Assembly (NCBI GenBank): GCA_043811395.1
Contig: JBDRNE010000115.1
Coordinates: 12,212 to 76,211 of the forward strand
Length of the DNA: 64,000 nucleotides
Source of the DNA: Candidatus Omnitrophota bacterium
Lineage (GTDB): Bacteria; Omnitrophota; Gorgyraeia; Tantalellales; Tantalellaceae
Direction: 5' to 3'
Shown: positions 1,612-63,607 of the stretch, in pieces
Position numbering within the stretch: the stretch's first letter is position 1
Layout: every line of letters begins with the position of its first letter
Notes under the pieces: model-generated
What the model was told of the DNA's origin: nothing
Seen by the model: only the letters and a program-made list of their open reading frames with translations
Databases searched by the model: none
Translations under genes and position numbers: made by a program

Positions 1612-2382
1612 ATAGGGACGTCACCCATTTAATTAAAAAAACAAAACGTAGAATAATCATTTAATCATAGGTCGTCCTCTGGGGCGTGATGTCAGGGGCC
1701 GACCTAATTTATTTTCCAACATTTTAAAAAAAGTTTTATTTCCTAGAGGTTTTCCCAATAAGGTATGTTTGTTAATTGTTTCTATCAATTCTTTTGAAGG
1801 TTCTAGTTTTAGATCTTCTCTCCAGTTTTGGGGGTCCAATACTTTTTTACTTGGTGATAAAGAAATAATTCCTTGTTCGATGTTGAGATGATCTCTCGCA
1901 CTAGACCATTTCCAATCCTCGAGGTTTTTGACAAGTTGTGCCCGTATGGGATTAAGCTCAATATATTGTGTTACAATATAACTATGTTGTTCATCAAGCG
2001 GACAAGAAAAAAAACGACTTTGCCAGAGATGTCCTACTTTTTTATATTTTTTATTGAAATATTGAGTATAACACATTTGGGTATAATTGAATGTCTTGGA
2101 AAAAGAGTCGGCTTGTTTCGGGATAGCTTTAACATGGATGTGGTTAGGCATAAGAGCGTATGAAGAAATATCGAGATAATATTTAGTTTTATGTTTTTCA
2201 AGTAGTGTAAGATATCGGATGTAGTCCTCATCATCAAAAAAAGTGGTAGTTTTATTGTTTCCTCTCTGAGTTATATGATGGGGAACTCCTAAAACAACAA
2301 TGCGTGCAGTTCGAGGCATAATGGCTCCTTTCGTAATTTTAACAAAATAGGTGACGTCCCTATTTATACGTCCCTATTTATA
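1611..2382. mobile_element. IS200/RAYT-like single-gene element bounded by perfect inverted repeats
   Basis: The left repeat AATAGGGACGTCACC (1611-1625) and the right repeat GGTGACGTCCCTATT (2350-2364) are exact reverse complements and bracket a Y1 transposase gene. A 14-bp tandem duplication CGTCCCTATTTATA lies at 2355-2368 and 2369-2382. Confidence 0.7.
1657..2319 (-). CDS. IS200-like / REP-associated tyrosine (Y1, HUH) transposase
   Basis: It carries the HUH-type motif (MPNHIHV) and a downstream region (GHLWQSRFFS) that presumably holds the catalytic Tyr. The ATG at 2319 follows AAGGAG. It is a single gene between inverted repeats. Confidence 0.8.
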   Translation of the reverse strand: MPRTARIVVLGVPHHITQRGNNKTTTFFDDEDYIRYLTLLEKHKTKYYLDISSYALMPNHIHVKAIPKQADSFSKTFNYTQMCYTQYFNKKYKKVGHLWQSRFFSCPLDEQHSYIVTQYIELNPIRAQLVKNLEDWKWSSARDHLNIEQGIISLSPSKKVLDPQNWREDLKLEPSKELIETINKHTLLGKPLGNKTFFKMLENKLGRPLTSRPRGRPMIK

Positions 2383-3910
2383 CCCATAAGTTTTTGTCTA
2401 GAGAACGGTATCCGATTGCCTCGGAAATGTGAGGCGTGTCTATAGTTTCTGAATTTGCCATATCGGCGATAGTTCGTGATATTTTTAGGATTTTGTCATA
2501 TGCTCGTGCGCTAATGCCGAGTTCAAGTATTGCTTTTTTTAGTAATGCTTCAGCTGTCGATGTTAGCGGGCAAAACATTTCAATGTCTTTTTGGGACATA
2601 TAAGCATTATAAGCAGAGGATCTTTTTTTGTTTTTAAAACGATTGTTTTGCAACTGTCGGTTTGCGGTTACCCGTTTTTTTATGTTCTCTGAATTTTCAC
2701 CCGTTCTCTTTTTTGATAAATCTGTGTAATCAAGACGGGGCACTTCAAGGTGTAAATCAATTCTGTCTAAAAGAGGTCCAGATATTTTTGAAAGATAACG
2801 TTGTATCTGGTAAGGTGAACATTGGCATTTTTTTAATTTGTCCGTAAAATAGCCGCATGGGCAGGGGTTCATGGCGGCGATAAGAACAAAACGTGATGGA
2901 TATTGGAGTGAACGCTGAGCTCTTGCTATTGTTATTTTTCCGGATTCAAGGGGTTGGCGCAGAGTTTCTAAGACGTCTCGGCGGAATTCCGGAAACTCAT
3001 CGAGAAAAAGAACTCCGTTATGCGCGAGGCTAATTTCACCTGGAAGCGGGTATGATCCGCCTCCTGCCATTGCCGCGTATGAAATCGTGTGGTGTGGAGA
3101 ACGAAAAGGCCGTTCTCTTATTAAGCCGGAATTTTTTGTTTGTCCGGTTACGCTGTAAATATTAGTTGTTTCGAGCGATTCCTTGAGGGAAAGATCCGGC
3201 AGGATAGAAGGGAACCGTTTTGCCAGCATGCTTTTTCCGGAACCCGGCGGGCCGAGGAGAAGAACATTGTGATTTCCGCTTGCGGCAACTTCAAGCCCAC
3301 GTTTTATATGGTGTTGACCCTTTACATCTTTAAAATCTAATTCGGTTTGAGAATTAGTATTAAAATATGTGTTTTTATTTATAACTGTTTGTGTTAAAGG
3401 TGTGATTTTTTTTAAGTGATCAATTACTTCGCGAAGGTTTCCTGCGCCATATACTGATATGTTATCTATGTTGGCGGCTTCAAGCGCGTTAGCGGTAGGT
3501 AGTATAAATGTTTTAAATTTGGTGTTTAAAGACATGGCTATTGGTAAGGCGCCCCGGAAATGTTTAAGTTTTCCGTTTAGGGAAAGTTCTCCGCAGAACA
3601 ATATGTTGTCAAGTTCTTCCTGTTTAAGCGCGGAAGTGGCTCCAAGTATGCCCAACGCTATTGGCAGGTCAAATCCTACGCCTTCTTTTTTTATGTCAGC
3701 CGGGGAAAGATTAACTGTTATTCTTGTTTCAGGAAAAGCAAATCCTGAATTTTTGATGGCGGAACGAATTCTGTTCCGACTCTCCCTTATTGAAGCATCG
3801 GGAAGGCCTACTACTAAAAAAGAAGGCATACCGTTTGTAACATCTACTTCAACGTCAACAGCCTGAGCGTTTACACCAATGACATATCCGGAATTTACTT
3901 TAGCAAGCAT
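2378..3910 (-). CDS. comM: Mg-chelatase-like AAA+ ATPase YifB/ComM
   Basis: It has a Walker A motif (GPPGSGKS), an LFLDEFPEF Walker B region and a ComM-type C-terminus. The ATG follows AAGGAG. The stop codon lies inside the second copy of the 14-bp tandem repeat. Confidence 0.9.
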   Translation of the reverse strand: MLAKVNSGYVIGVNAQAVDVEVDVTNGMPSFLVVGLPDASIRESRNRIRSAIKNSGFAFPETRITVNLSPADIKKEGVGFDLPIALGILGATSALKQEELDNILFCGELSLNGKLKHFRGALPIAMSLNTKFKTFILPTANALEAANIDNISVYGAGNLREVIDHLKKITPLTQTVINKNTYFNTNSQTELDFKDVKGQHHIKRGLEVAASGNHNVLLLGPPGSGKSMLAKRFPSILPDLSLKESLETTNIYSVTGQTKNSGLIRERPFRSPHHTISYAAMAGGGSYPLPGEISLAHNGVLFLDEFPEFRRDVLETLRQPLESGKITIARAQRSLQYPSRFVLIAAMNPCPCGYFTDKLKKCQCSPYQIQRYLSKISGPLLDRIDLHLEVPRLDYTDLSKKRTGENSENIKKRVTANRQLQNNRFKNKKRSSAYNAYMSQKDIEMFCPLTSTAEALLKKAILELGISARAYDKILKISRTIADMANSETIDTPHISEAIGYRSLDKNLWV

Positions 3911-7404: not shown

Positions 7405-7428
7405 GGTGCGCGTTTCTTGAAAACAAAT

Positions 7429-9426
7429 ATGGCAAAAGACAAAAATATAAATAAAAGAATTAGTGAACTTAGGGAGATGATACTAAGACATAATGACCTC
7501 TATTACATAGATGGACTGCCAGAAATTTCTGACAATAAATATGATGAATTAGTCAGAGAACTGAAGGCTTTAGAACTTCAATATCCCGAATATGTTTCAT
7601 CGGATTCTCCTACCCAAACTGTCGGGGCTCCGATCCCTGACAAATTTGAAAAAGTGCAACATGTTACGCCCATGCTTAGCCTCGAAAGCATAAATGATTC
7701 TCTAGGCGCGAATCATTTCGATCAGGTATGTGTGAAAGAATTGGGTGAAAGTATTGATTATTTATGCGAGCCCAAACTTGACGGGCTTAGCGTAGAGCTT
7801 GTTTACGAAAATGGTATTTTTACCCGCGCCGCGACTCGCGGAGATGGCATGACTGGTGAAGAGGTTACGCTTAATGTGCGGACTATCGGGAATGTGCCTA
7901 AACGCTTGAAAAGCAGTGACGCACCTAAACACCTTGCTGTTCGTGGCGAAGTTATGATGCACATAAAAGATTTTCAGGAATTAAATAAAAGACGGATAGA
8001 ACAAAACGGGGATGTTTTTGCCAATCCGCGTAATGTAGCGGCAGGATCAATGCGGCAGTTGGATGCTCGCGTAACCGCACGGAGAAAACTTCATGTTTAT
8101 TGTTATCAGATACTAGCATTTTCTGGAAACGCGCCGACAACACAATTTGAGGCGATGAAGTTATTAAAACAAATGGGGTTTGATGTTTCACCGAATATGA
8201 AACATTGCCGAAATATCGAAGAGGTAAAAGAATATCATCACAATATGGAAGCAGTGCGAGACGATCTTAACTATGAAATTGATGGTATTGTTGTAAAAGT
8301 TAATAAAATTAAATTTCAGGAAAAATTGGGAACAAGAACCACAAATCCTAAATGGGCAGTTGCTTATAAATTTAAACCGCGAAAAGAAATTACACGTTTG
8401 GAGGATATTATTGTTCAAGTTGGGCGTACAGGAGTTATTACTCCTTTGGCTTTACTCCAGGCGGTTGAAGTGGGAGGCGTGACAGTTTCAAGAGCAACAC
8501 TTCACAATATGGATCAAATAAAAAAATTAGGTGTAAAGATCGGTGATTACGTGAAGCTTCACAGAGCCGGAGACGTTATTCCCTATATCGCGGAAGTAGT
8601 AAAAGAGAAAAGGACGGGGAAGGAAAAAGAATTTCATATGCCGTCAAAGTGTCCCAGTTGCGGCGCTAAGGTAGAATGGGAAAATGTTTTTTGTCGGTGT
8701 CCGGCCGGGCTCGCGTGCCCAGCTCAACTAAAAGAAACGATCATACATTACACTTCTAAAGGAGCGGCAAATATTGACGGATTTTCCGTAAAAACAGTGG
8801 AGCTATTATATTCCAAAGGGCTTATCCGCAATATCTCAGATATATATTCGTTAAACAGTAGTGATTTATTAAAGCTTGAGGGCTGGAAAGAGAAAAGAAC
8901 AAATAATCTTTTAGAGGCAATCGAAAAATCTAAAAACATTGCGTTAGATAGATTCATTTTCGGTCTGGGGATTAGGAATGTAGGGAAACATATCGCATTT
9001 CTTTTAGCCAAAAGGTTTGGGAATTTAGAAAATATTATTTCAGCAGATAGAGATAGAATAGTTGCGGTAAAAGAAATAGGCCCTGAAATAACAGATAGCA
9101 TAATAGATTTTTTTAATGTCTCGGAAAACATAAAGGAAATAAAACGTTTGAAAAATGCCGGAGTTGTTGTCGTGGAAAGCAAATTAGTTTCAAAAGGTAG
9201 GTTGCTTGAAAAAAAATTCGTTTTTACAGGAACCCTTGAAAAGTTGACCCGGCAGGAAGCAAAAGATTTAGTAGAATCGAAAGGCGGGGAAGTTGTTTCG
9301 AGTGTAGGTAAGGATGTTGATTTTGTTGTTGCCGGGAAAAAAGCTGGCTCCAAGTTGAAGAAGGCGAAAGAAAAAGATATAAAAGTCCTGTCGGAAGAAG
9401 AGTTTATGAAGTTAGTTGGCCGATAA
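7429..9426 (+). CDS. ligA: NAD-dependent DNA ligase
   Basis: It has the KxDG adenylation motif (EPKLDGLSVEL), a Zn-finger (CPSCGA...C) and a C-terminal BRCT. The track start at 7417 is TTG; the first ATG is at 7429. The gene begins 12-24 nt after polX. Confidence 0.9.
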   Translation: MAKDKNINKRISELREMILRHNDLYYIDGLPEISDNKYDELVRELKALELQYPEYVSSDSPTQTVGAPIPDKFEKVQHVTPMLSLESINDSLGANHFDQVCVKELGESIDYLCEPKLDGLSVELVYENGIFTRAATRGDGMTGEEVTLNVRTIGNVPKRLKSSDAPKHLAVRGEVMMHIKDFQELNKRRIEQNGDVFANPRNVAAGSMRQLDARVTARRKLHVYCYQILAFSGNAPTTQFEAMKLLKQMGFDVSPNMKHCRNIEEVKEYHHNMEAVRDDLNYEIDGIVVKVNKIKFQEKLGTRTTNPKWAVAYKFKPRKEITRLEDIIVQVGRTGVITPLALLQAVEVGGVTVSRATLHNMDQIKKLGVKIGDYVKLHRAGDVIPYIAEVVKEKRTGKEKEFHMPSKCPSCGAKVEWENVFCRCPAGLACPAQLKETIIHYTSKGAANIDGFSVKTVELLYSKGLIRNISDIYSLNSSDLLKLEGWKEKRTNNLLEAIEKSKNIALDRFIFGLGIRNVGKHIAFLLAKRFGNLENIISADRDRIVAVKEIGPEITDSIIDFFNVSENIKEIKRLKNAGVVVVESKLVSKGRLLEKKFVFTGTLEKLTRQEAKDLVESKGGEVVSSVGKDVDFVVAGKKAGSKLKKAKEKDIKVLSEEEFMKLVGR

Positions 9427-9433
9427 AGAAATT

Positions 9434-9550
9434 GGGGTCAGCCCTTGAAATGTGAAACTTGCTAATTTATTTACCTTAAGTTTCACATTTCAAGGGCTGA
9501 CCCCAAAGTACACTTTTCAAGGGCTGACCCCAAAGTACACCAAAGTACAT
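9434..9550. repeat. Long palindromic repeat element R1: a 27-bp stem hairpin plus tandem partial copies
   Basis: GGGGTCAGCCCTTGAAATGTGAAACTT (9434-9460) pairs with its reverse complement at 9478-9504. The direct repeat CAAGGGCTGACCCCAAAGTACAC occurs at 9491-9513 and 9518-9540. A second copy of the element lies at 39298-39395. Confidence 0.8.
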
Positions 9551-9576
9551 GAGTCAATTCGCTTTGAGCAATTACA

Positions 9577-9605
9577 TTGACAGAATAAATCATAGTGTAT
9601 ATAAT
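9577..9605 (+). promoter_or_regulatory. Consensus sigma-70 promoter upstream of lysS (TTGACA-17-TATAAT)
   Basis: TTGACA at 9577-9582, a 17-nt spacer, and TATAAT at 9600-9605. Confidence 0.6.
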
Positions 9606-9690
9606 TGGGTGAGGCTGAATGCCCTATGCATTTAGGGAGTAATACCGTATAAATAATATTAAACAATTTGGAATTCAAAAGGGTATCTTT

Positions 9691-11121
9691 ATGGAAGAAA
9701 AAAATGGGTTAGTTGAACAACGGTACAAAAATCTCGAAAAAATACAAAATCTGGGGGTCGATCCTTTTGGTAGAAGCATTTCCGGGATTCAAAGTATTCT
9801 TGCCGTTAAACGCGATTATAGCGAAGGCATGAAAGCTAAGATTGCCGGCAGAATAATGGCCAGCCGGGTACATGGGAAAAGTGTTTTTATGGATGTAAAA
9901 GATTTTGACGGCCGCATGCAGGTTTATTTTCGGCAGGATGTTGTCGGGGAGATTCCTTTTGATATGCTAAAAAGTTTGGATATAGGTGATATTGTAGCTC
10001 TCGAAGGCGAGCTTTTTAGGACAAGAACAGGGGAAGATACTGTTCTTGTAAAAGAATATGTTGTTTTGGCGAAGTCATTAGTGCCTCTTCCTGAAAAATG
10101 GCATGGTCTTAAAGATGTAGAAACAAGGTATCGGCAGAGGTACGTTGACTTAATAGTAAACGATACTGCCCGAGAGAAGTTTAAAACAAGATTAAGTCTT
10201 ATACGGAACATTAGAGAAACGCTTGACGTACGCGGTTTTTTAGAAGTGGAAACGCCCATGATGCATCCTATTCCGGGAGGGGCCGCGGGAAAACCTTTTA
10301 AAACACATCATCAGGCCTTGGACATGGATTTATATCTTCGTATCGCGCCGGAAATATATTTAAAAAAACTTTTAGTGGGTGGGTTTGAAAAAATTTTTGA
10401 AATTAACCGATCTTTTCGAAATGAAGGTATTTCTGCAAGGCATAACCCGGAATTTACAATGATGGAAGTGTATGAGGCTTATTCTGATTGCGAAGGCATG
10501 ATGAAGCTTACTGAAGACATCGTTCGCCGCGCGGCAAAAACTTTACTTGGCACAGAAAAATTTACATACCAGGGTAAGGATATTGATTTAACGGTTTGGA
10601 AACGGGTTTCATTCGCGGAACTTATGGAAGCAAATTTTGGGATTAAAGTTAGTGATCCTTTAAATGAGTGGATATCTAAGCTTAAAACAAAAGGCGTTGT
10701 AATCGAAGGCGATAAAGTCAGTAAAACTCAGATTCTTAATATTGTGGGTGAATTGGTTGAACCCGAGGCAGGAACACACCCAGTATTTGTTGTGGATATG
10801 TTCAAGGAACTAAGCCCGTTGGCTAAAGAGAAAGAGAATTCTCCCGGTATTGCTGACAGATTTGAACTTTATATGGGGGGAATGGAAATTGCCAACGCGT
10901 ATTCTGAACTAAACGATCCTATAGATCAACGAAAGAGATTTGAAGAGCAGGTCAAAGCGGATCCCTCTGCAATGATGGATGAAGATTTTATTCGGGCGCT
11001 TGAGTATGGCATGCCGCCTGCCGGTGGGTTAGGAATAGGCATTGATCGGCTTGCAATGATTTTTACGGATTCGGCAAATATTCGCGAAGTTATTCTTTTT
11101 CCGCATATGCGACCAGAGTAA
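9691..11121 (+). CDS. lysS: Lysyl-tRNA synthetase, class II
   Basis: It has an N-terminal OB-fold anticodon-binding region and class II motifs (FRNEGIS..., GGLGIGIDRL). The ATG follows AAAGGG. Confidence 0.9.
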   Translation: MEEKNGLVEQRYKNLEKIQNLGVDPFGRSISGIQSILAVKRDYSEGMKAKIAGRIMASRVHGKSVFMDVKDFDGRMQVYFRQDVVGEIPFDMLKSLDIGDIVALEGELFRTRTGEDTVLVKEYVVLAKSLVPLPEKWHGLKDVETRYRQRYVDLIVNDTAREKFKTRLSLIRNIRETLDVRGFLEVETPMMHPIPGGAAGKPFKTHHQALDMDLYLRIAPEIYLKKLLVGGFEKIFEINRSFRNEGISARHNPEFTMMEVYEAYSDCEGMMKLTEDIVRRAAKTLLGTEKFTYQGKDIDLTVWKRVSFAELMEANFGIKVSDPLNEWISKLKTKGVVIEGDKVSKTQILNIVGELVEPEAGTHPVFVVDMFKELSPLAKEKENSPGIADRFELYMGGMEIANAYSELNDPIDQRKRFEEQVKADPSAMMDEDFIRALEYGMPPAGGLGIGIDRLAMIFTDSANIREVILFPHMRPE

Positions 11122-11133
11122 TTTACATATGTT

Positions 11134-11211
11134 GTATGTCGTACATAGCATATCGCCTCAAAAGCCTTAAATTCTATATACGATGTACGACATACGATAC
11201 ACGACATACGA
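11134..11211 (+). promoter_or_regulatory. Inverted repeat plus tandem direct repeat immediately upstream of lolC/E (operator-like)
   Basis: GTATGTCGTACAT (11134-11146) pairs with ATGTACGACATAC (11183-11195). The direct repeat ACGACATACGA occurs at 11187-11197 and 11201-11211. Confidence 0.4.
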
Positions 11212-11216
11212 CAATT

Positions 11217-38608: not shown

Positions 38609-39295
38609 ATGAAAGTTTTAGCATTTGATACTTCAACAACATTTTTAACAATAGCATGTGTTGAGGATAATAAACTTAAAAAAAAATATCATAAAGACGT
38701 AGGAATACGCCATAGTGAGATTTTAATCGAAAAAATAAAGGATATGTTGGATAGTCTCGGCTGGACTATGCGGGATTTGGACCTAATATGCGTGGGTTCA
38801 GGGCCTGGTTCTTTTACCGGATTACGTGTAGCTATGGCAACGGTTAAGGGTTTTTTGACGTCACTTTCTGCTAAAGCAGTTGTTGTCCCGACAGTGGACG
38901 CGATGGCGGGTAATGTATCAAAAAGGTTTGCATCCAGGAAAAAACATAAATTAATAGCACCTTTTTTAGACGCTCGAAAGAACAAAATATATACGTGTGT
39001 TTATGATTGTTTTAAGCGAGATGTTAAACGTGTTTCAGGTTATATTTTAGCTGAGCCCGAAGATTTTTTAAAAGGGTTAAAACAAAATGTATTTTTTTTC
39101 GGAGATGCCGTGAAGAAATATAAGAAGGAATTAGATTCGTGCCCTTTTGCGGATTATTCGGAAGAAGTAGATTGGTATCCAAAAGCAGTTTATATTGCGC
39201 GAATAGGTATAAAAAAATCTTTAAAAAAAACAGATAATCATAAAACTATAGAACCTTTATATTTGCATGAAAAAGAATGTAGCATAAGCAGATAA
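38609..39295 (+). CDS. tsaB: tRNA t6A37 biosynthesis protein TsaB (YeaZ)
   Basis: The Kae1/YeaZ fold N-terminus is VLAFDTST. Confidence 0.85.
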   Translation: MKVLAFDTSTTFLTIACVEDNKLKKKYHKDVGIRHSEILIEKIKDMLDSLGWTMRDLDLICVGSGPGSFTGLRVAMATVKGFLTSLSAKAVVVPTVDAMAGNVSKRFASRKKHKLIAPFLDARKNKIYTCVYDCFKRDVKRVSGYILAEPEDFLKGLKQNVFFFGDAVKKYKKELDSCPFADYSEEVDWYPKAVYIARIGIKKSLKKTDNHKTIEPLYLHEKECSISR

Positions 39296-39297
39296 AT

Positions 39298-39395
39298 GGG
39301 GTCAGCCCTTGAAATGTGAAACTTAGCATAAATAAATTGTCAAGTTTCACATTTCAAGGGCTGACCCCAAAGCTCAGGGCTGACCCCAAAGCTCC
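39298..39395. repeat. Long palindromic repeat element R2: the second copy of the 27-bp stem hairpin plus tandem partial copies
   Basis: The arms at 39298-39324 and 39342-39368 are identical to those of R1. The loop is the inverse of the R1 loop. The direct repeat GGGCTGACCCCAAAGCTC occurs at 39358-39375 and 39377-39394. Confidence 0.8.
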
Positions 39396-42652: not shown

Positions 42653-43144
42653 ATGTCAAAATTTGTTATTGCGGCATTAGTTGAAAATAAGTTTGGTGTT
42701 TTAGCTAGAGTTGCGGGTCTTTTTAGCGCCAGAGGGTTTAATATTGATTCTTTGGCCGTGGGTGAAACCGAAGATCCCGATGTTTCGCGTATGACTATTG
42801 TTGTTGAAGCAGACGAAAAAATTCTCGAACAAGTAAAAAAACAGCTCAACAAACTGATAGAAGTGATTAAAGTACACGATCTTACAGGCGGGGAGTATGT
42901 TGATAGGGAATTAATACTTATCAAAATCAAAGCTGAAAACACCGAAGTGCGGGAGAAAATAGTGCAGGTTGTGGATTCAACCGGAGCGGAAATAATTGAC
43001 ATCGGGAAAAATTTTCTTACAGTGGAAGAATCCGGAGATGAGCATAAAATCAAAACTTTGATTGAGCTTGTACGTCCTTACGGTATTCTTGAAATTGTCA
43101 GGACAGGTAAAATCGCAGTTAAATCAAATAAGGAGGAAGTGTAA
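42653..43144 (+). CDS. ilvN: Acetolactate synthase small (regulatory, ACT-domain) subunit
   Basis: The ACT domain is [24 protein letters not shown]. The RBS is AAGGAG. Confidence 0.9.
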
Positions 43145-44133
43145 TGGCAAAAATGTATTATGACAATGATGCGGATTTAAGCGTGATAAAAGGTCTTAAA
43201 GTCGCGATAATAGGTTATGGAATACAAGGACGCGGGCAAGCTTTGAATTTACGTGATAGCGGGGTTGAAGTTTTAGTTAGCGAGTTGGAAGGAACACCAA
43301 ACTATGAACAGGCAAAAAAAGACGGGTTTGAAGTGTTTTCAGCAAGTGACGCGGCGAAAAACTCGGATATTATACAAATTTTAACACAGGATCATGTGCA
43401 AGGCGCTGTATATAAAAATGCCATAGAAGCGAATTTGAAAGAGGGAGACGCGCTTGTTTTTTCACATGGGTTTAATATTCACTTTAAACAGATAGTTCCC
43501 CCGAAGAATGTAGACGTTTTTATGGTAGCTCCAAAGGGGCCGGGCGCTTTGGTGCGTGAGATGTATGAACAGGGTAAAGGGGTTCCTTGTCTTATAGCGG
43601 TGTATCAGGATTTTAGCGGAAAAGCCAAAGATAAAGCCCTTGCTTACGCTAAAGCTTTGGGAGGAACACGAGCCGGTGTTATCGAAACCACATTTAAAGA
43701 GGAAACAGAAACTGATCTGTTTGGCGAACAGGCAGTGCTTTGCGGCGGAGCCTCAGAACTTATAAAAGCCGGGTTTGATACTCTTGTGTCTGCTGGTTAT
43801 CAACCGGAAATAGCTTATTTTGAATGTCTTCATGAGCTGAAACTTATTACGGATCTTGTTTATAAATACGGGATTTCCGGAATGCGCAAAAGAGTTTCGG
43901 ATACCGCGGAGTATGGTGATATAACAAGGGGCAAAAGAGTTATTGATCAGCATACACGCGAGGAAATGAAAAAAATCCTTAGTGAAATTCAGTCCGGCAG
44001 TTTCGCGGATGAATGGATAAAGGAAAATGAAAATGGACGTCCGAATTACAATAGAATAACGCAGGAAGAAAAGGGACACCAAATAGAAAAGGTTGGAAGT
44101 GAATTGCGCGGTATGATGCCGTGGATGGAATAG
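43144..44133 (+). CDS. ilvC: Ketol-acid reductoisomerase
   Basis: The Rossmann motif is [15 protein letters not shown]. The RBS is AAGGAGGAAG. It is coupled to the ilvN stop codon. Confidence 0.95.
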
Positions 44134-44143
44134 CAAATTATTA

Positions 44144-44179
44144 GGGGTCAGGTTTTGACATTTGTCAAAACCTGACCCC
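44144..44179 (+). terminator. Perfect 17-bp stem hairpin GGGGTCAGGTTTTGACA/TGTCAAAACCTGACCCC after ilvC (terminator or REP-like element)
   Basis: The palindrome begins 10 nt after the ilvC stop. It shares the GGGGTCAG...CTGACCCC termini with R1 and R2. Confidence 0.55.
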
Positions 44180-44227
44180 CTGGCAAATTTGAATTTTGTC
44201 ATTTGTCATTAATTAAAGGGACGTATT

Positions 44228-62417: not shown

Positions 62418-63449
62418 ATGGAGAAACCTAAAAGAATACTTATTTTTGAATTAAATTGGCTGGGAGACATACTGTTTTCTTTTCCTTTTATTAAGGCTCT
62501 TAGAGGCGCTTTCCCGTCTGCTTATATAACTTGCGCGGTGGTGCCTCGGTACGCGGAACTTTTAAAAAACAATACTTGTGTGGATAAAATATACGAACTT
62601 TCAGATGGTAACGGCGTTTTATCTTTATTGGAAAAATTAAAATTTATCTTTTTTTTACGAAAAGAAAGATTTGATACTTGTTTTCTTCTTAAACCTTCAA
62701 GAAATAAATCATTTGTCGCGTTATGCGCGGGAATTAAGCGAAGAATAGGGTTCGGTGGTAAAAAATCTTTTCTTACGGAAGAAGTAAAGCTTCCCCTAAA
62801 AGAAATGCACAGAGTGTTTCAGATTTTGCTCATTGCAAAAAGTATTGGCATAGATGTTACAGATGATAAATATGAATATTGTGTAAATATAGAAGATTCA
62901 AAGTGTGTTAATGAGTTATTAAACGCGGATACATGCGATAACAATGCTTTAATTGCGATTAATCCCGGAGGGAACTGGCCAGCGAAAAGGTGGCCCGCTA
63001 AAAACTTTGTATTGCTTGCAAAAAAAATTTTAACTCAGTTTAGTAACGTAAAAATTGTTATAACAGGTGCTAAAAAAGATAAGTTACTTGCGGAAGATGT
63101 GGCGCGTGAAATAGGAAGTGAAAGGTGTTGTAACTTGGCAGGGTGCACAAAGTTGAATGAGTTAGCCTCGGTTTTTAGTAAATGTGCTCTTATGATAAGC
63201 TCTGATTCAGGCCCGTTACATTTAGCTTCCGCGGTCGGGACCGTTACAATAGGTATTTTTGGGCCGACATCACATAAAATCACCGGGCCGATGGGGGTTG
63301 GCAGGAGTATTGTAATTAGAGAAGATATTGATTGTAAAATTCCATGTTACGAAGAGCATTGTATGAAAGATTATATTTGCATGGAAAAAGTGACTGTAGA
63401 TAAGGTTTTTAACACGGTTTGTGATTTGTTTGGCCGGGGTGCTAAGTAG
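62418..63449 (+). CDS. Glycosyltransferase family 9 (ADP-heptose:LPS heptosyltransferase-like)
   Basis: The GT9 N-terminal motif is ILIFELNWLGDILFSFP, and the C-terminal motif is SGPLHLASAVGT. Confidence 0.8.
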   Translation: MEKPKRILIFELNWLGDILFSFPFIKALRGAFPSAYITCAVVPRYAELLKNNTCVDKIYELSDGNGVLSLLEKLKFIFFLRKERFDTCFLLKPSRNKSFVALCAGIKRRIGFGGKKSFLTEEVKLPLKEMHRVFQILLIAKSIGIDVTDDKYEYCVNIEDSKCVNELLNADTCDNNALIAINPGGNWPAKRWPAKNFVLLAKKILTQFSNVKIVITGAKKDKLLAEDVAREIGSERCCNLAGCTKLNELASVFSKCALMISSDSGPLHLASAVGTVTIGIFGPTSHKITGPMGVGRSIVIREDIDCKIPCYEEHCMKDYICMEKVTVDKVFNTVCDLFGRGAK

Positions 63450-63607
63450 AAGGGGGTGCAAGATTCAGTTGCTTTGTGTACCCGTATCAAACAGGTCCTC
63501 GGCTTCTAAAGTGGCCTGTGAAACTCGCCGGGCATACAAAGCAAGTGAATCTTTTGTCAAAAAGGTGTTTTGTGCAACGTGGAGCCTGTAACGTGTTACG
63601 CTAAATT

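Follow-up and report, generated by a model that had tools for sequence, protein, structure and literature searches.

Hairpins behind stop codons in an Omnitrophota genome as probable mini elements of the TIRtron class

Introduction

RAYT-like genes that are flanked by terminal inverted repeats, and not by REPs, have been named TIRYT, and the elements that carry them TIRtrons (Di Nocera et al. 2013, PMC3733652). Many TIRtron repeats share the motif GGGGWSAS and may overlap the 3' end of the gene, and in some genomes they form moderately abundant families whose members occur singly, as dimers or in groups. Quentin et al. 2018 (PMC6006769), who quote the GGGGWSAS motif as well, treat TIRYT as subclass 2.1 of TnpAREP, with a C-terminal extension resembling Bac_DnaA_C, HTH_23 or HTH_28. 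The TIRtron/TIRYT class has been known since 2013 and is little studied; our literature searches found neither a mechanistic study of TIRYT nor biochemical data on its cleavage. To the GGGGWSAS class we add here three hairpins, R1, R2 and R3, from a 64-kb stretch of Omnitrophota DNA, the whole of which is called the window below.

Results and Discussion

Hairpin structure and copy number

R1 (9434–9504) is made up of two 27-nt arms (9434–9460 and 9478–9504) which are 100% complementary and extend to 29 nt once the flanking TT/AA is included; the arm sequence GGGGTCAGCCCTTGAAATGTGAAACTT is followed by a 17-nt loop (9461–9477) and then by its exact reverse complement. R2 (39298–39368; arms 39298–39324 and 39342–39368, 17-nt loop 39325–39341) contains the identical 27-mer, as the initial annotation had stated, and this 27-mer occurs four times in the window against an expectation of zero. 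The same annotation had described a third hairpin after ilvC with shared termini and a different interior, and this too was recovered: R3 (44144–44179; perfect 17-nt arms at 44144–44160 and 44163–44179, loop of 2 nt) carries the 8-nt tips GGGGTCAG/CTGACCCC of R1 and R2 around an interior of its own (GTTTTGACA). The tip GGGGTCAG is found eight times in the 64-kb window (0.6 expected), and all eight occurrences lie inside R1, R2 and R3. The window thus holds two copies of the R1 type and one of the R3 type. The R1 loop (GCTAATTTATTTACCTT) and the R2 loop read in reverse complement (GACAATTTATTTATGCT) match at 12 of the 17 positions, which agrees with the claim that the two loops are mutually reverse-complementary in their core.

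The predicted RNA folds of the three hairpins have, in order, energies of -59.6 kcal/mol (z-score -9.2 relative to shuffled controls), -65.3 kcal/mol (-10.4) and -36.8 kcal/mol (-5.7). Scans of the whole window with Rfam (gathering threshold) and for tRNA/tmRNA gave no hits. That the hairpins are not ordinary terminators, again as first proposed, was upheld: no U-tract follows them, their tails being AAAGTACA (R1), AAAGCTC (R2) and CTGGCAAA (R3), and no terminator-like site was found around R1 (9300–9800). An assignment as intrinsic terminators, that is, a GC-rich stem plus a U-tract, was rejected since the U-tract is missing. Downstream of R3 (44184–44215) there is a 7-nt tandem repeat, TTTGTCA, in 2.3 copies (44195–44210); in view of its similarity to the inner arm of R3 (ATTTGTCAAAA) this repeat may be a degraded partial copy.

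Genomic setting

The stop codon of ligA (7417–9426, plus strand) lies 7 nt upstream of R1, that of tsaB (38609–39295, plus strand) 2 nt upstream of R2, and that of ilvC (43144–44133, plus strand) 10 nt upstream of R3, which confirms the reported start of R1 and R2 just after ligA and tsaB. The first of these genes specifies a product with DNA-ligase domains, the second a product with a TsaD-family domain (NCBI name TsaB), and the third corresponds to a KARI-domain gene of a syntenic relative; a look-up of the exact ilvC product found no record. Across the hairpin dimers collected in this study a gene stop is found at a distance of 60 nt or less in 10 of 13. The mini elements might insert into short spacers right behind stop codons, or survive only there. 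In a compact genome purifying selection, too, would spare insertions of any kind in positions of this sort.

Between R1 and the gene at 9691–11121 there is a perfect sigma-70 consensus promoter (TTGACA, 17 nt, TATAAT; 12 of 12 positions; 9577–9605), and because of this promoter downstream of it R1 is placed at the end of the ligA transcription unit. Two further types of hairpin occur after stops within the window. One, at 11130–11213 right after the stop at 11121, is long and imperfect (GTATGTCGTACATAGCATATCG ... CGACATACGATACACGACATACGACA) with a 7-nt ATACGAC array; the other, at 63460–63553, begins 11 nt past the stop of the gene at 62418–63449 and has 25-nt arms, 88% complementary, around a 44-nt loop.

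The probable parent element

The outer 20 nt of the arm were used to scan one genome per species, and this search beyond the window found them in 31 stretches of other metagenome-assembled genomes (MAGs). These are mostly Omnitrophota, with a few of the 20-mer hits falling in bins labelled Nitrospirae, Planctomycetia, Clostridia, Desulfobacteraceae and Dehalococcoidales. In two of the retrieved loci (designated by L numbers), L022 (1046–2059) and L027 (5913–6923), an inverted pair of the 20-mer about 1.0 kb apart encloses a single ORF, of 315 and 314 aa, respectively. When metagenomes were scanned for the species-specific 20-mer GCCCTTGAAATGTGAAACTT, a single further hit came up, to a variant in L036, and the R3-type arm pattern GGGGTCAGGTTTTGA had no match among the retrieved loci.

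The ORFs of L022 and L027 match Pfam Y1_Tnp (IS200-like) [1e-11 and 4e-13], and the HUH motif NHYHL and the tyrosine motif RYMHLNP are visible in translation. ORFs of this type also match Bac_DnaA_C [4e-8; 33.7 bits, above the cut-off of 31.5] and reach 70.8 bits with NCBIfam REP_Tyr_transpos (REP-associated tyrosine transposase), below its cut-off of 80. A phmmer search of the PDB aligned the C-terminus to DnaA domain IV [1J1V]; this domain was the only match and no RAYT structure was found. Homologues number more than 7000 at E<1e-10.

The right repeat of these elements is coding: it constitutes the last six codons (..ISHFKG) and the TGA stop of the transposase gene, encoded by ATTTCACATTTCAAGGGCTGA, and across 120 homologues the C-terminus is conserved as (I/V)S(H/S/T)FK(G/V/A). 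The left repeat lies 62–65 nt upstream of the ATG, without exception in five further full elements, and consists of the 8-nt tip, 3 nt and two 7-nt direct repeats (TTGAAAT, GTGAAAT); inside it come TTGACA, 17 nt, TAAAAT and then the ATG. The two ends co-vary, the C-terminus ISRFSA being accompanied by the left repeat GGGGTCAGGCACTGAAACGTGAAATA and TSNFEG by the left repeat GGGGTCAGCCCTCGAAATTAGAA (L044, L046). No target-site duplication was seen in the flanks of L022, L027, L009, L010, L021, R1 or R2. Assignment of the TTTCACA within the repeat as a DnaA box was considered and is no more than a weak idea; it matches TTWTNCACA at seven of nine positions and is not kept where the C-terminus differs (ISSF, TSNF).

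The repeat is dispersed within genomes, occurring on five contigs in one MAG (CSMAG_2647) and at five loci on four contigs in Hainich-H52-bin157. Short hairpin dimers resembling R1 were found in L005, L009 (two), L010, L021, L028 and L031. In other assemblies contigs break exactly at the repeat; thus L004 ends with ...GGGGT and L053 starts with GGGTCAG.

Two other arrangements of element ends were encountered. Clusters of truncated or tandem left ends, each a repeat followed by TTGACA, occur in L044 (9478–9660) and L051 (5019–5140), in the former upstream of an intact TIRYT gene and in the latter about 5 kb from one; they have conserved flanks of 8–9 nt (GATAAT, TAATTAAA), and may represent nested or abortive insertions beside resident ends. 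In L029 (486–3550) and L033 (minus strand) three single repeat ends stand in direct orientation about 0.35–2.1 kb apart, most of them followed by a GTTG... flank, and in L029 they separate small genes which include a toxin-antitoxin-like pair and an ankyrin-repeat gene. An attC-like cassette array was rejected for L029 and L033, the likeness being one of superficial layout and no integrase having been seen at these loci.

R1 and R2 as probable deletion derivatives

The left arm of R1 (9434–9460, plus strand) aligns to the left ends of L022, L027, L044 and L046 and is a left terminal inverted repeat, with the GGGGTCAG tip, CCC and two 7-nt direct repeats (TTGAAAT, GTGAAAC). Its right arm (9478–9504, plus strand) is the right terminal inverted repeat, which in full elements forms the last codons and the TGA (..SHFKG*). 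The loop between them (9461–9477, plus strand) is a remnant of the subterminal region, in which TTGCTA corresponds to the -35 box TTGACA in forward orientation. In R2 the order is reversed. Read in the element's own orientation, the first arm (39298–39324 on the plus strand) is the right repeat and the second (39342–39368 on the plus strand) the left repeat, and the loop (39325–39341) is to be read from the minus strand, where its reverse complement GACAATTTATTTATGCT holds the end of an intact TTGACA remnant, the adjoining arm supplying the two leading Ts with its final two bases.

When aligned, the R1 loop (TTGCTAATTTATTTA...) and the R2 loop in reverse complement (TTGACAATTTATTTA...) both fall on the TTGACA region inside the left repeat. 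Since the loops align to this subterminal promoter region, forward in R1 and reverse in R2, insertion in opposite orientations explains the "inverted loop"; of the two explanations first put forward for it this one stands, and an invertible switch is not needed. The suggestion of a MITE-like or REP-like mobile hairpin family is supported, with a refinement. The family is mobile in that its arms are the terminal repeats of a transposase element; membership among the classical MITEs or REPs was not borne out, the sequences having neither a target-site duplication nor GTAG.

Based upon these alignments we conclude that R1 and R2, together with R3, are probably gene-less mini elements derived from TIRtrons, R1 and R2 being non-autonomous copies with an internal deletion. 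What is left in each of these two is the left repeat, about 15 nt of the adjoining promoter region and the right repeat, and therefore the repeats pair as a 27-bp hairpin; as for R3, it is a shorter dimer belonging to a sister subfamily of repeats. No TIRYT gene with repeats matching R1 and R2 was found within the 64-kb window. One would assume that a TIRYT encoded elsewhere in the genome mobilises the mini elements, presumably as single-stranded hairpins and without target-site duplication.

Tandem duplications at element ends

The partial tandem re-duplications that had been described at the hairpin ends were recovered at both R1 and R2 by Tandem Repeats Finder. The flank of R1 (9505–9549, plus strand) shows two of them, which together add 37 nt: a 27-nt unit in 2.1 copies (9484–9540, 96% matches) composed of 19 nt of arm and the 8-nt flank AAAGTACA, and a 10-nt unit in two copies (9530–9549) composed of 2 nt of arm (CC) and the same 8 nt. 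At R2 (39357–39394, plus strand) a 19-nt unit is present twice with 100% identity, namely the 12-nt arm tip AGGGCTGACCCC followed by the 7-nt flank AAAGCTC. L001, which comes from another assembly of this organism, lacks the 37 extra nucleotides of R1 and in all else agrees at 100% over 4829 nt; since the R1 duplication is polymorphic between near-identical assemblies the events are recent. The R2 duplication is identical across three assemblies, and at three other TIRYT loci no end polymorphism was seen across samples.

Equivalent duplications recur in genomes that are unrelated, and in full elements they are seen at left and right ends alike. The duplicated unit is CTGACCCC+TTGTTGA in L022, AGGGCTGACCCC+ATGGTTCC in L035, CAAGGGCTGACCCC+GTTATCTCG in L014 and CTGACCCC+CCATAATT in L013, each present twice; in L017 the flank TTATTCGC is present three times and in L044 the flank TTATTCTC twice, and looser cases occur in L005, L026, L030 and L051. 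On the flank side the breakpoint lies at +7 to +9 in nearly all cases, and on the element side it varies (0, -1, -2, -8 [three cases], -12 [three cases], -14, -19 and -27); most junctions are without microhomology. A survey of 399.5 kb of non-redundant loci for perfect tandem duplications with periods of 10–45 yielded 20, seven of which touch an element end, and such ends make up about 1% of this sequence. The flanks are also biased in composition: at 48 ends T is present at +2/+3 in 60–65% and pyrimidines at +5 to +9 in 75–88%, and certain flanks, GTTGTTT(T) and ATTCTCCC, are shared by members of a subfamily.

The geometry of the breakpoints allows a tentative proposal, which we put forward as possible, that the duplications of tip plus flank arise by nicking, extension and resealing. 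The transposase would nick about 8 nt (7–9) outside the tip, on the strand 5'-N8-GGGGTCAG; by short strand-displacement synthesis a polymerase would then extend the free 3'-OH into the repeat, to a point that varies from case to case; and once the protein-linked 5' end had been rejoined to the extended strand, the copied stretch would be present twice. It is a little more doubtful still whether the duplications may be taken as enzymatic footprints, by which the nick made by TIRYT would lie about 8 nt beyond the GGGGWSAS tip and this pathway would be implied. The pattern of end scars and its fixed offset are the only parts of the present description that may be new.

The second Y1 element

The window contains a single Y1 transposase gene (1657–2319, minus strand), and it is of another kind. 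Its 220-aa product matches Pfam Y1_Tnp [1.4e-11], is 38% identical to the N-terminal domain of TIRYT, and is without the DnaA-like domain. The gene has inverted repeats of its own (TAGGGACGTCACC; 1613–1625 and 2350–2362). At one repeat of this element (1613–2383) the sequence ATAAATAGGGACGT is tandemly duplicated (two copies, 2354–2383), and the duplication overlaps the stop codon of the upstream gene for a 510-aa protein (2378–3910, minus strand).

Related loci at the same spacers

In the sister species represented by L037 synteny is complete, the DNA is about 85% identical and TsaB 86% identical. Its tsaB-alr spacer, the site of R2, contains unrelated GC-rich sequence and no GGGGTCAG hairpin; in its ilvC-leuA spacer, the site of R3, there is a GGGGTCAG hairpin whose interior (ACTTCGAAAAT) differs from that of R3 and is similar to a repeat of L044. 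A clean empty site was recovered at neither the R2 nor the R3 site of L037. More distant relatives (L038–L043) have other hairpin families, including GTAG-type ones, in the tsaB-alr and ilvC-leuA spacers. Their CGTATGTCGTA-type repeat is also present in the window, at 11130–11213, and the repeat type found there fills the ilvC-leuA spacer in L038 and L040. In the tsaB-alr spacer L038 (10682–10820) has a GTAG-containing hairpin with perfect 26-nt arms, and L041 (10682–10972) four tandem copies of a GTAG-containing unit of about 35–40 nt, both resembling REPINs. These occurrences suggest that the tsaB-alr spacer is a hot spot for different hairpin families. In the Omnitrophota successive hairpin families may replace one another in such spacers because a hairpin serves there as the 3'-end structure of the operon.

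Alternative explanations

If the hairpins were RNA or DNA structures selected by the host (3'-end stabilisers, terminators or operon punctuation), with a transposon ancestry that is incidental, one would expect them where they are found, all three lying 2–10 nt behind the stops of co-directional genes, and one would expect the extremely stable folds. The perfect sigma-70 consensus promoter past R1, by which R1 would mark the end of a transcript, points the same way, as do the further after-stop hairpins of the window (11130–11213 and 63460–63553), the other long-hairpin families at the tsaB-alr and ilvC-leuA spacers of related Omnitrophota, and the GGGGTCAG hairpin which L037 keeps after ilvC. 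We nevertheless regard such selection as rather unlikely. There is neither a U-tract nor a terminator-like hit, L037 has not kept the sequence of the R2 site, and identical 27-nt arms at two unrelated loci speak of recent copying and not of local conservation, while the position behind stops is where purifying selection leaves any insertion in a compact genome. Host selection is moreover compatible with a transposon origin, and its probability therefore overlaps that of the TIRtron derivation. That GGGGTCAG might be a DNA-uptake or other genome-wide signal which occurs as inverted pairs, as does the Neisseria DUS in terminators, is a thought prompted by the three hairpins sharing only their 8-nt tips; it is so improbable as to be negligible, given that none of the eight occurrences in 64 kb is dispersed outside the three hairpins, and that in many phyla this motif forms the tip of inverted repeats linked to a transposase, a finding already in the literature (PMC3733652).

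The main competitor of nicking, extension and resealing as the origin of the duplications is replication slippage, or faulty flap processing, at a long palindrome, in which the transposase would have no part. Long palindromes stall replication and provoke local rearrangements, and the duplications do sit right at the foot of the stem. We disfavour slippage and think it improbable, for it normally needs microhomology, which the junctions in R2, L022, L013 and L014 do not have; it would also have to act at single ends of full 1-kb elements whose partner arm is about 1 kb away (L022, L014, L035), to respect a flank breakpoint fixed at +7 to +9, and to have a parallel at the end of an unrelated Y1 element (2354–2383). 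A trivial origin, either of R1 and R2 by simple segmental duplication or of the tandem repeats by faulty assembly, would accord with there being just two copies in the window and with the R1 duplication missing from one other assembly. It is very improbable. The flanks of R1 and R2 are unrelated, which excludes segmental duplication, named by the initial annotation in one of its refuting cases, and their loops are inverted; three assemblies made independently agree on the R2 duplication, duplications of the same kind are found in MAGs of different studies and different assemblers, and the repeat periods (10–27 nt) are far below assembler k-mer sizes. Derivation from TIRtrons is the reading of the hairpins that we prefer.

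Significance

The homologues of TIRYT, more than 7000 at E<1e-10, show that the class is abundant, and in uncultured lineages such as the Omnitrophota its 27-nt ends are strikingly conserved. The anatomy of the element is clear, consisting of the tip, two 7-nt repeats, a -35/-10 promoter and a right repeat within the last codons. The reproducible scar at its ends, with a fixed offset of 7–9 nt, gives a testable prediction of where TIRYT would cut. If the scars are indeed footprints, the chemistry would be nearer to that of HUH Rep proteins acting at hairpinned termini than to the peel-and-paste of IS200/IS605, and the R1 polymorphism would mean that the enzyme is active in present-day populations. 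For annotation, such hairpins explain contig breaks in MAGs, and they should not be called terminators or RNA genes.

Comparison with known systems

Classical MITEs (Correia/NEMIS, RUP) are, like R1 and R2, short non-coding derivatives of a transposase element with terminal inverted repeats. They are mobilised by DDE enzymes and make target-site duplications (TA and similar), whereas none are found here. With IS200/IS605 elements (IS608, ISDra2) the present ones share the Y1 HUH fold and the lack of a target-site duplication; single-strand intermediates are probable, and cleavage offset from the recognised structure, which we infer here, is a further likeness. Those insertion sequences, however, have two different subterminal hairpins in place of perfect inverted repeats of about 27 nt, and their transposases are without the DnaA-like HTH.

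REPINs (Bertels & Rainey 2011, PMC3116915) are likewise long hairpins of two inverted units, non-coding and dispersed between genes; for their mobilisation they presumably depend in trans on a Y1 transposase (RAYT), the product of a single-copy gene with the same repeats on either side. The differences lie in the arm. The 27-nt arm of R1 and R2 contains neither GTAG nor CTAC (the classical REP tag being GTAG or CGTC), and it is not itself a palindrome, having a GGG/CCC pairing of only 3 bp, so that the hairpin forms between arms; furthermore the arms are the transposon's own terminal repeats, one of them coding.

From the TIRtrons the family differs in its hosts, Omnitrophota and other uncultured groundwater and sediment organisms, which are not among the genomes named in the accessible portions of PMC3733652 and PMC6006769. 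Those portions likewise make no mention of perfect 27-bp dimers with a -35 remnant or of tandem duplications of the tip with 7–9 nt of flank, and a cognate gene is lacking in the 64-kb window. In all other respects compared the likeness is close. The tip GGGGTCAG fits GGGGWSAS at R1, R2, R3, L022, L027, L044 and L046; in the related loci L022 and L027 a RAYT-like Y1 HUH transposase is encoded between the repeats and ends in a Bac_DnaA_C-like HTH, as described for subclass 2.1; left and right repeats are complementary and co-vary, and the 3' end of the gene lies within the right repeat; and the repeats are dispersed as singles, dimers and groups, as are those of the TIRtrons.
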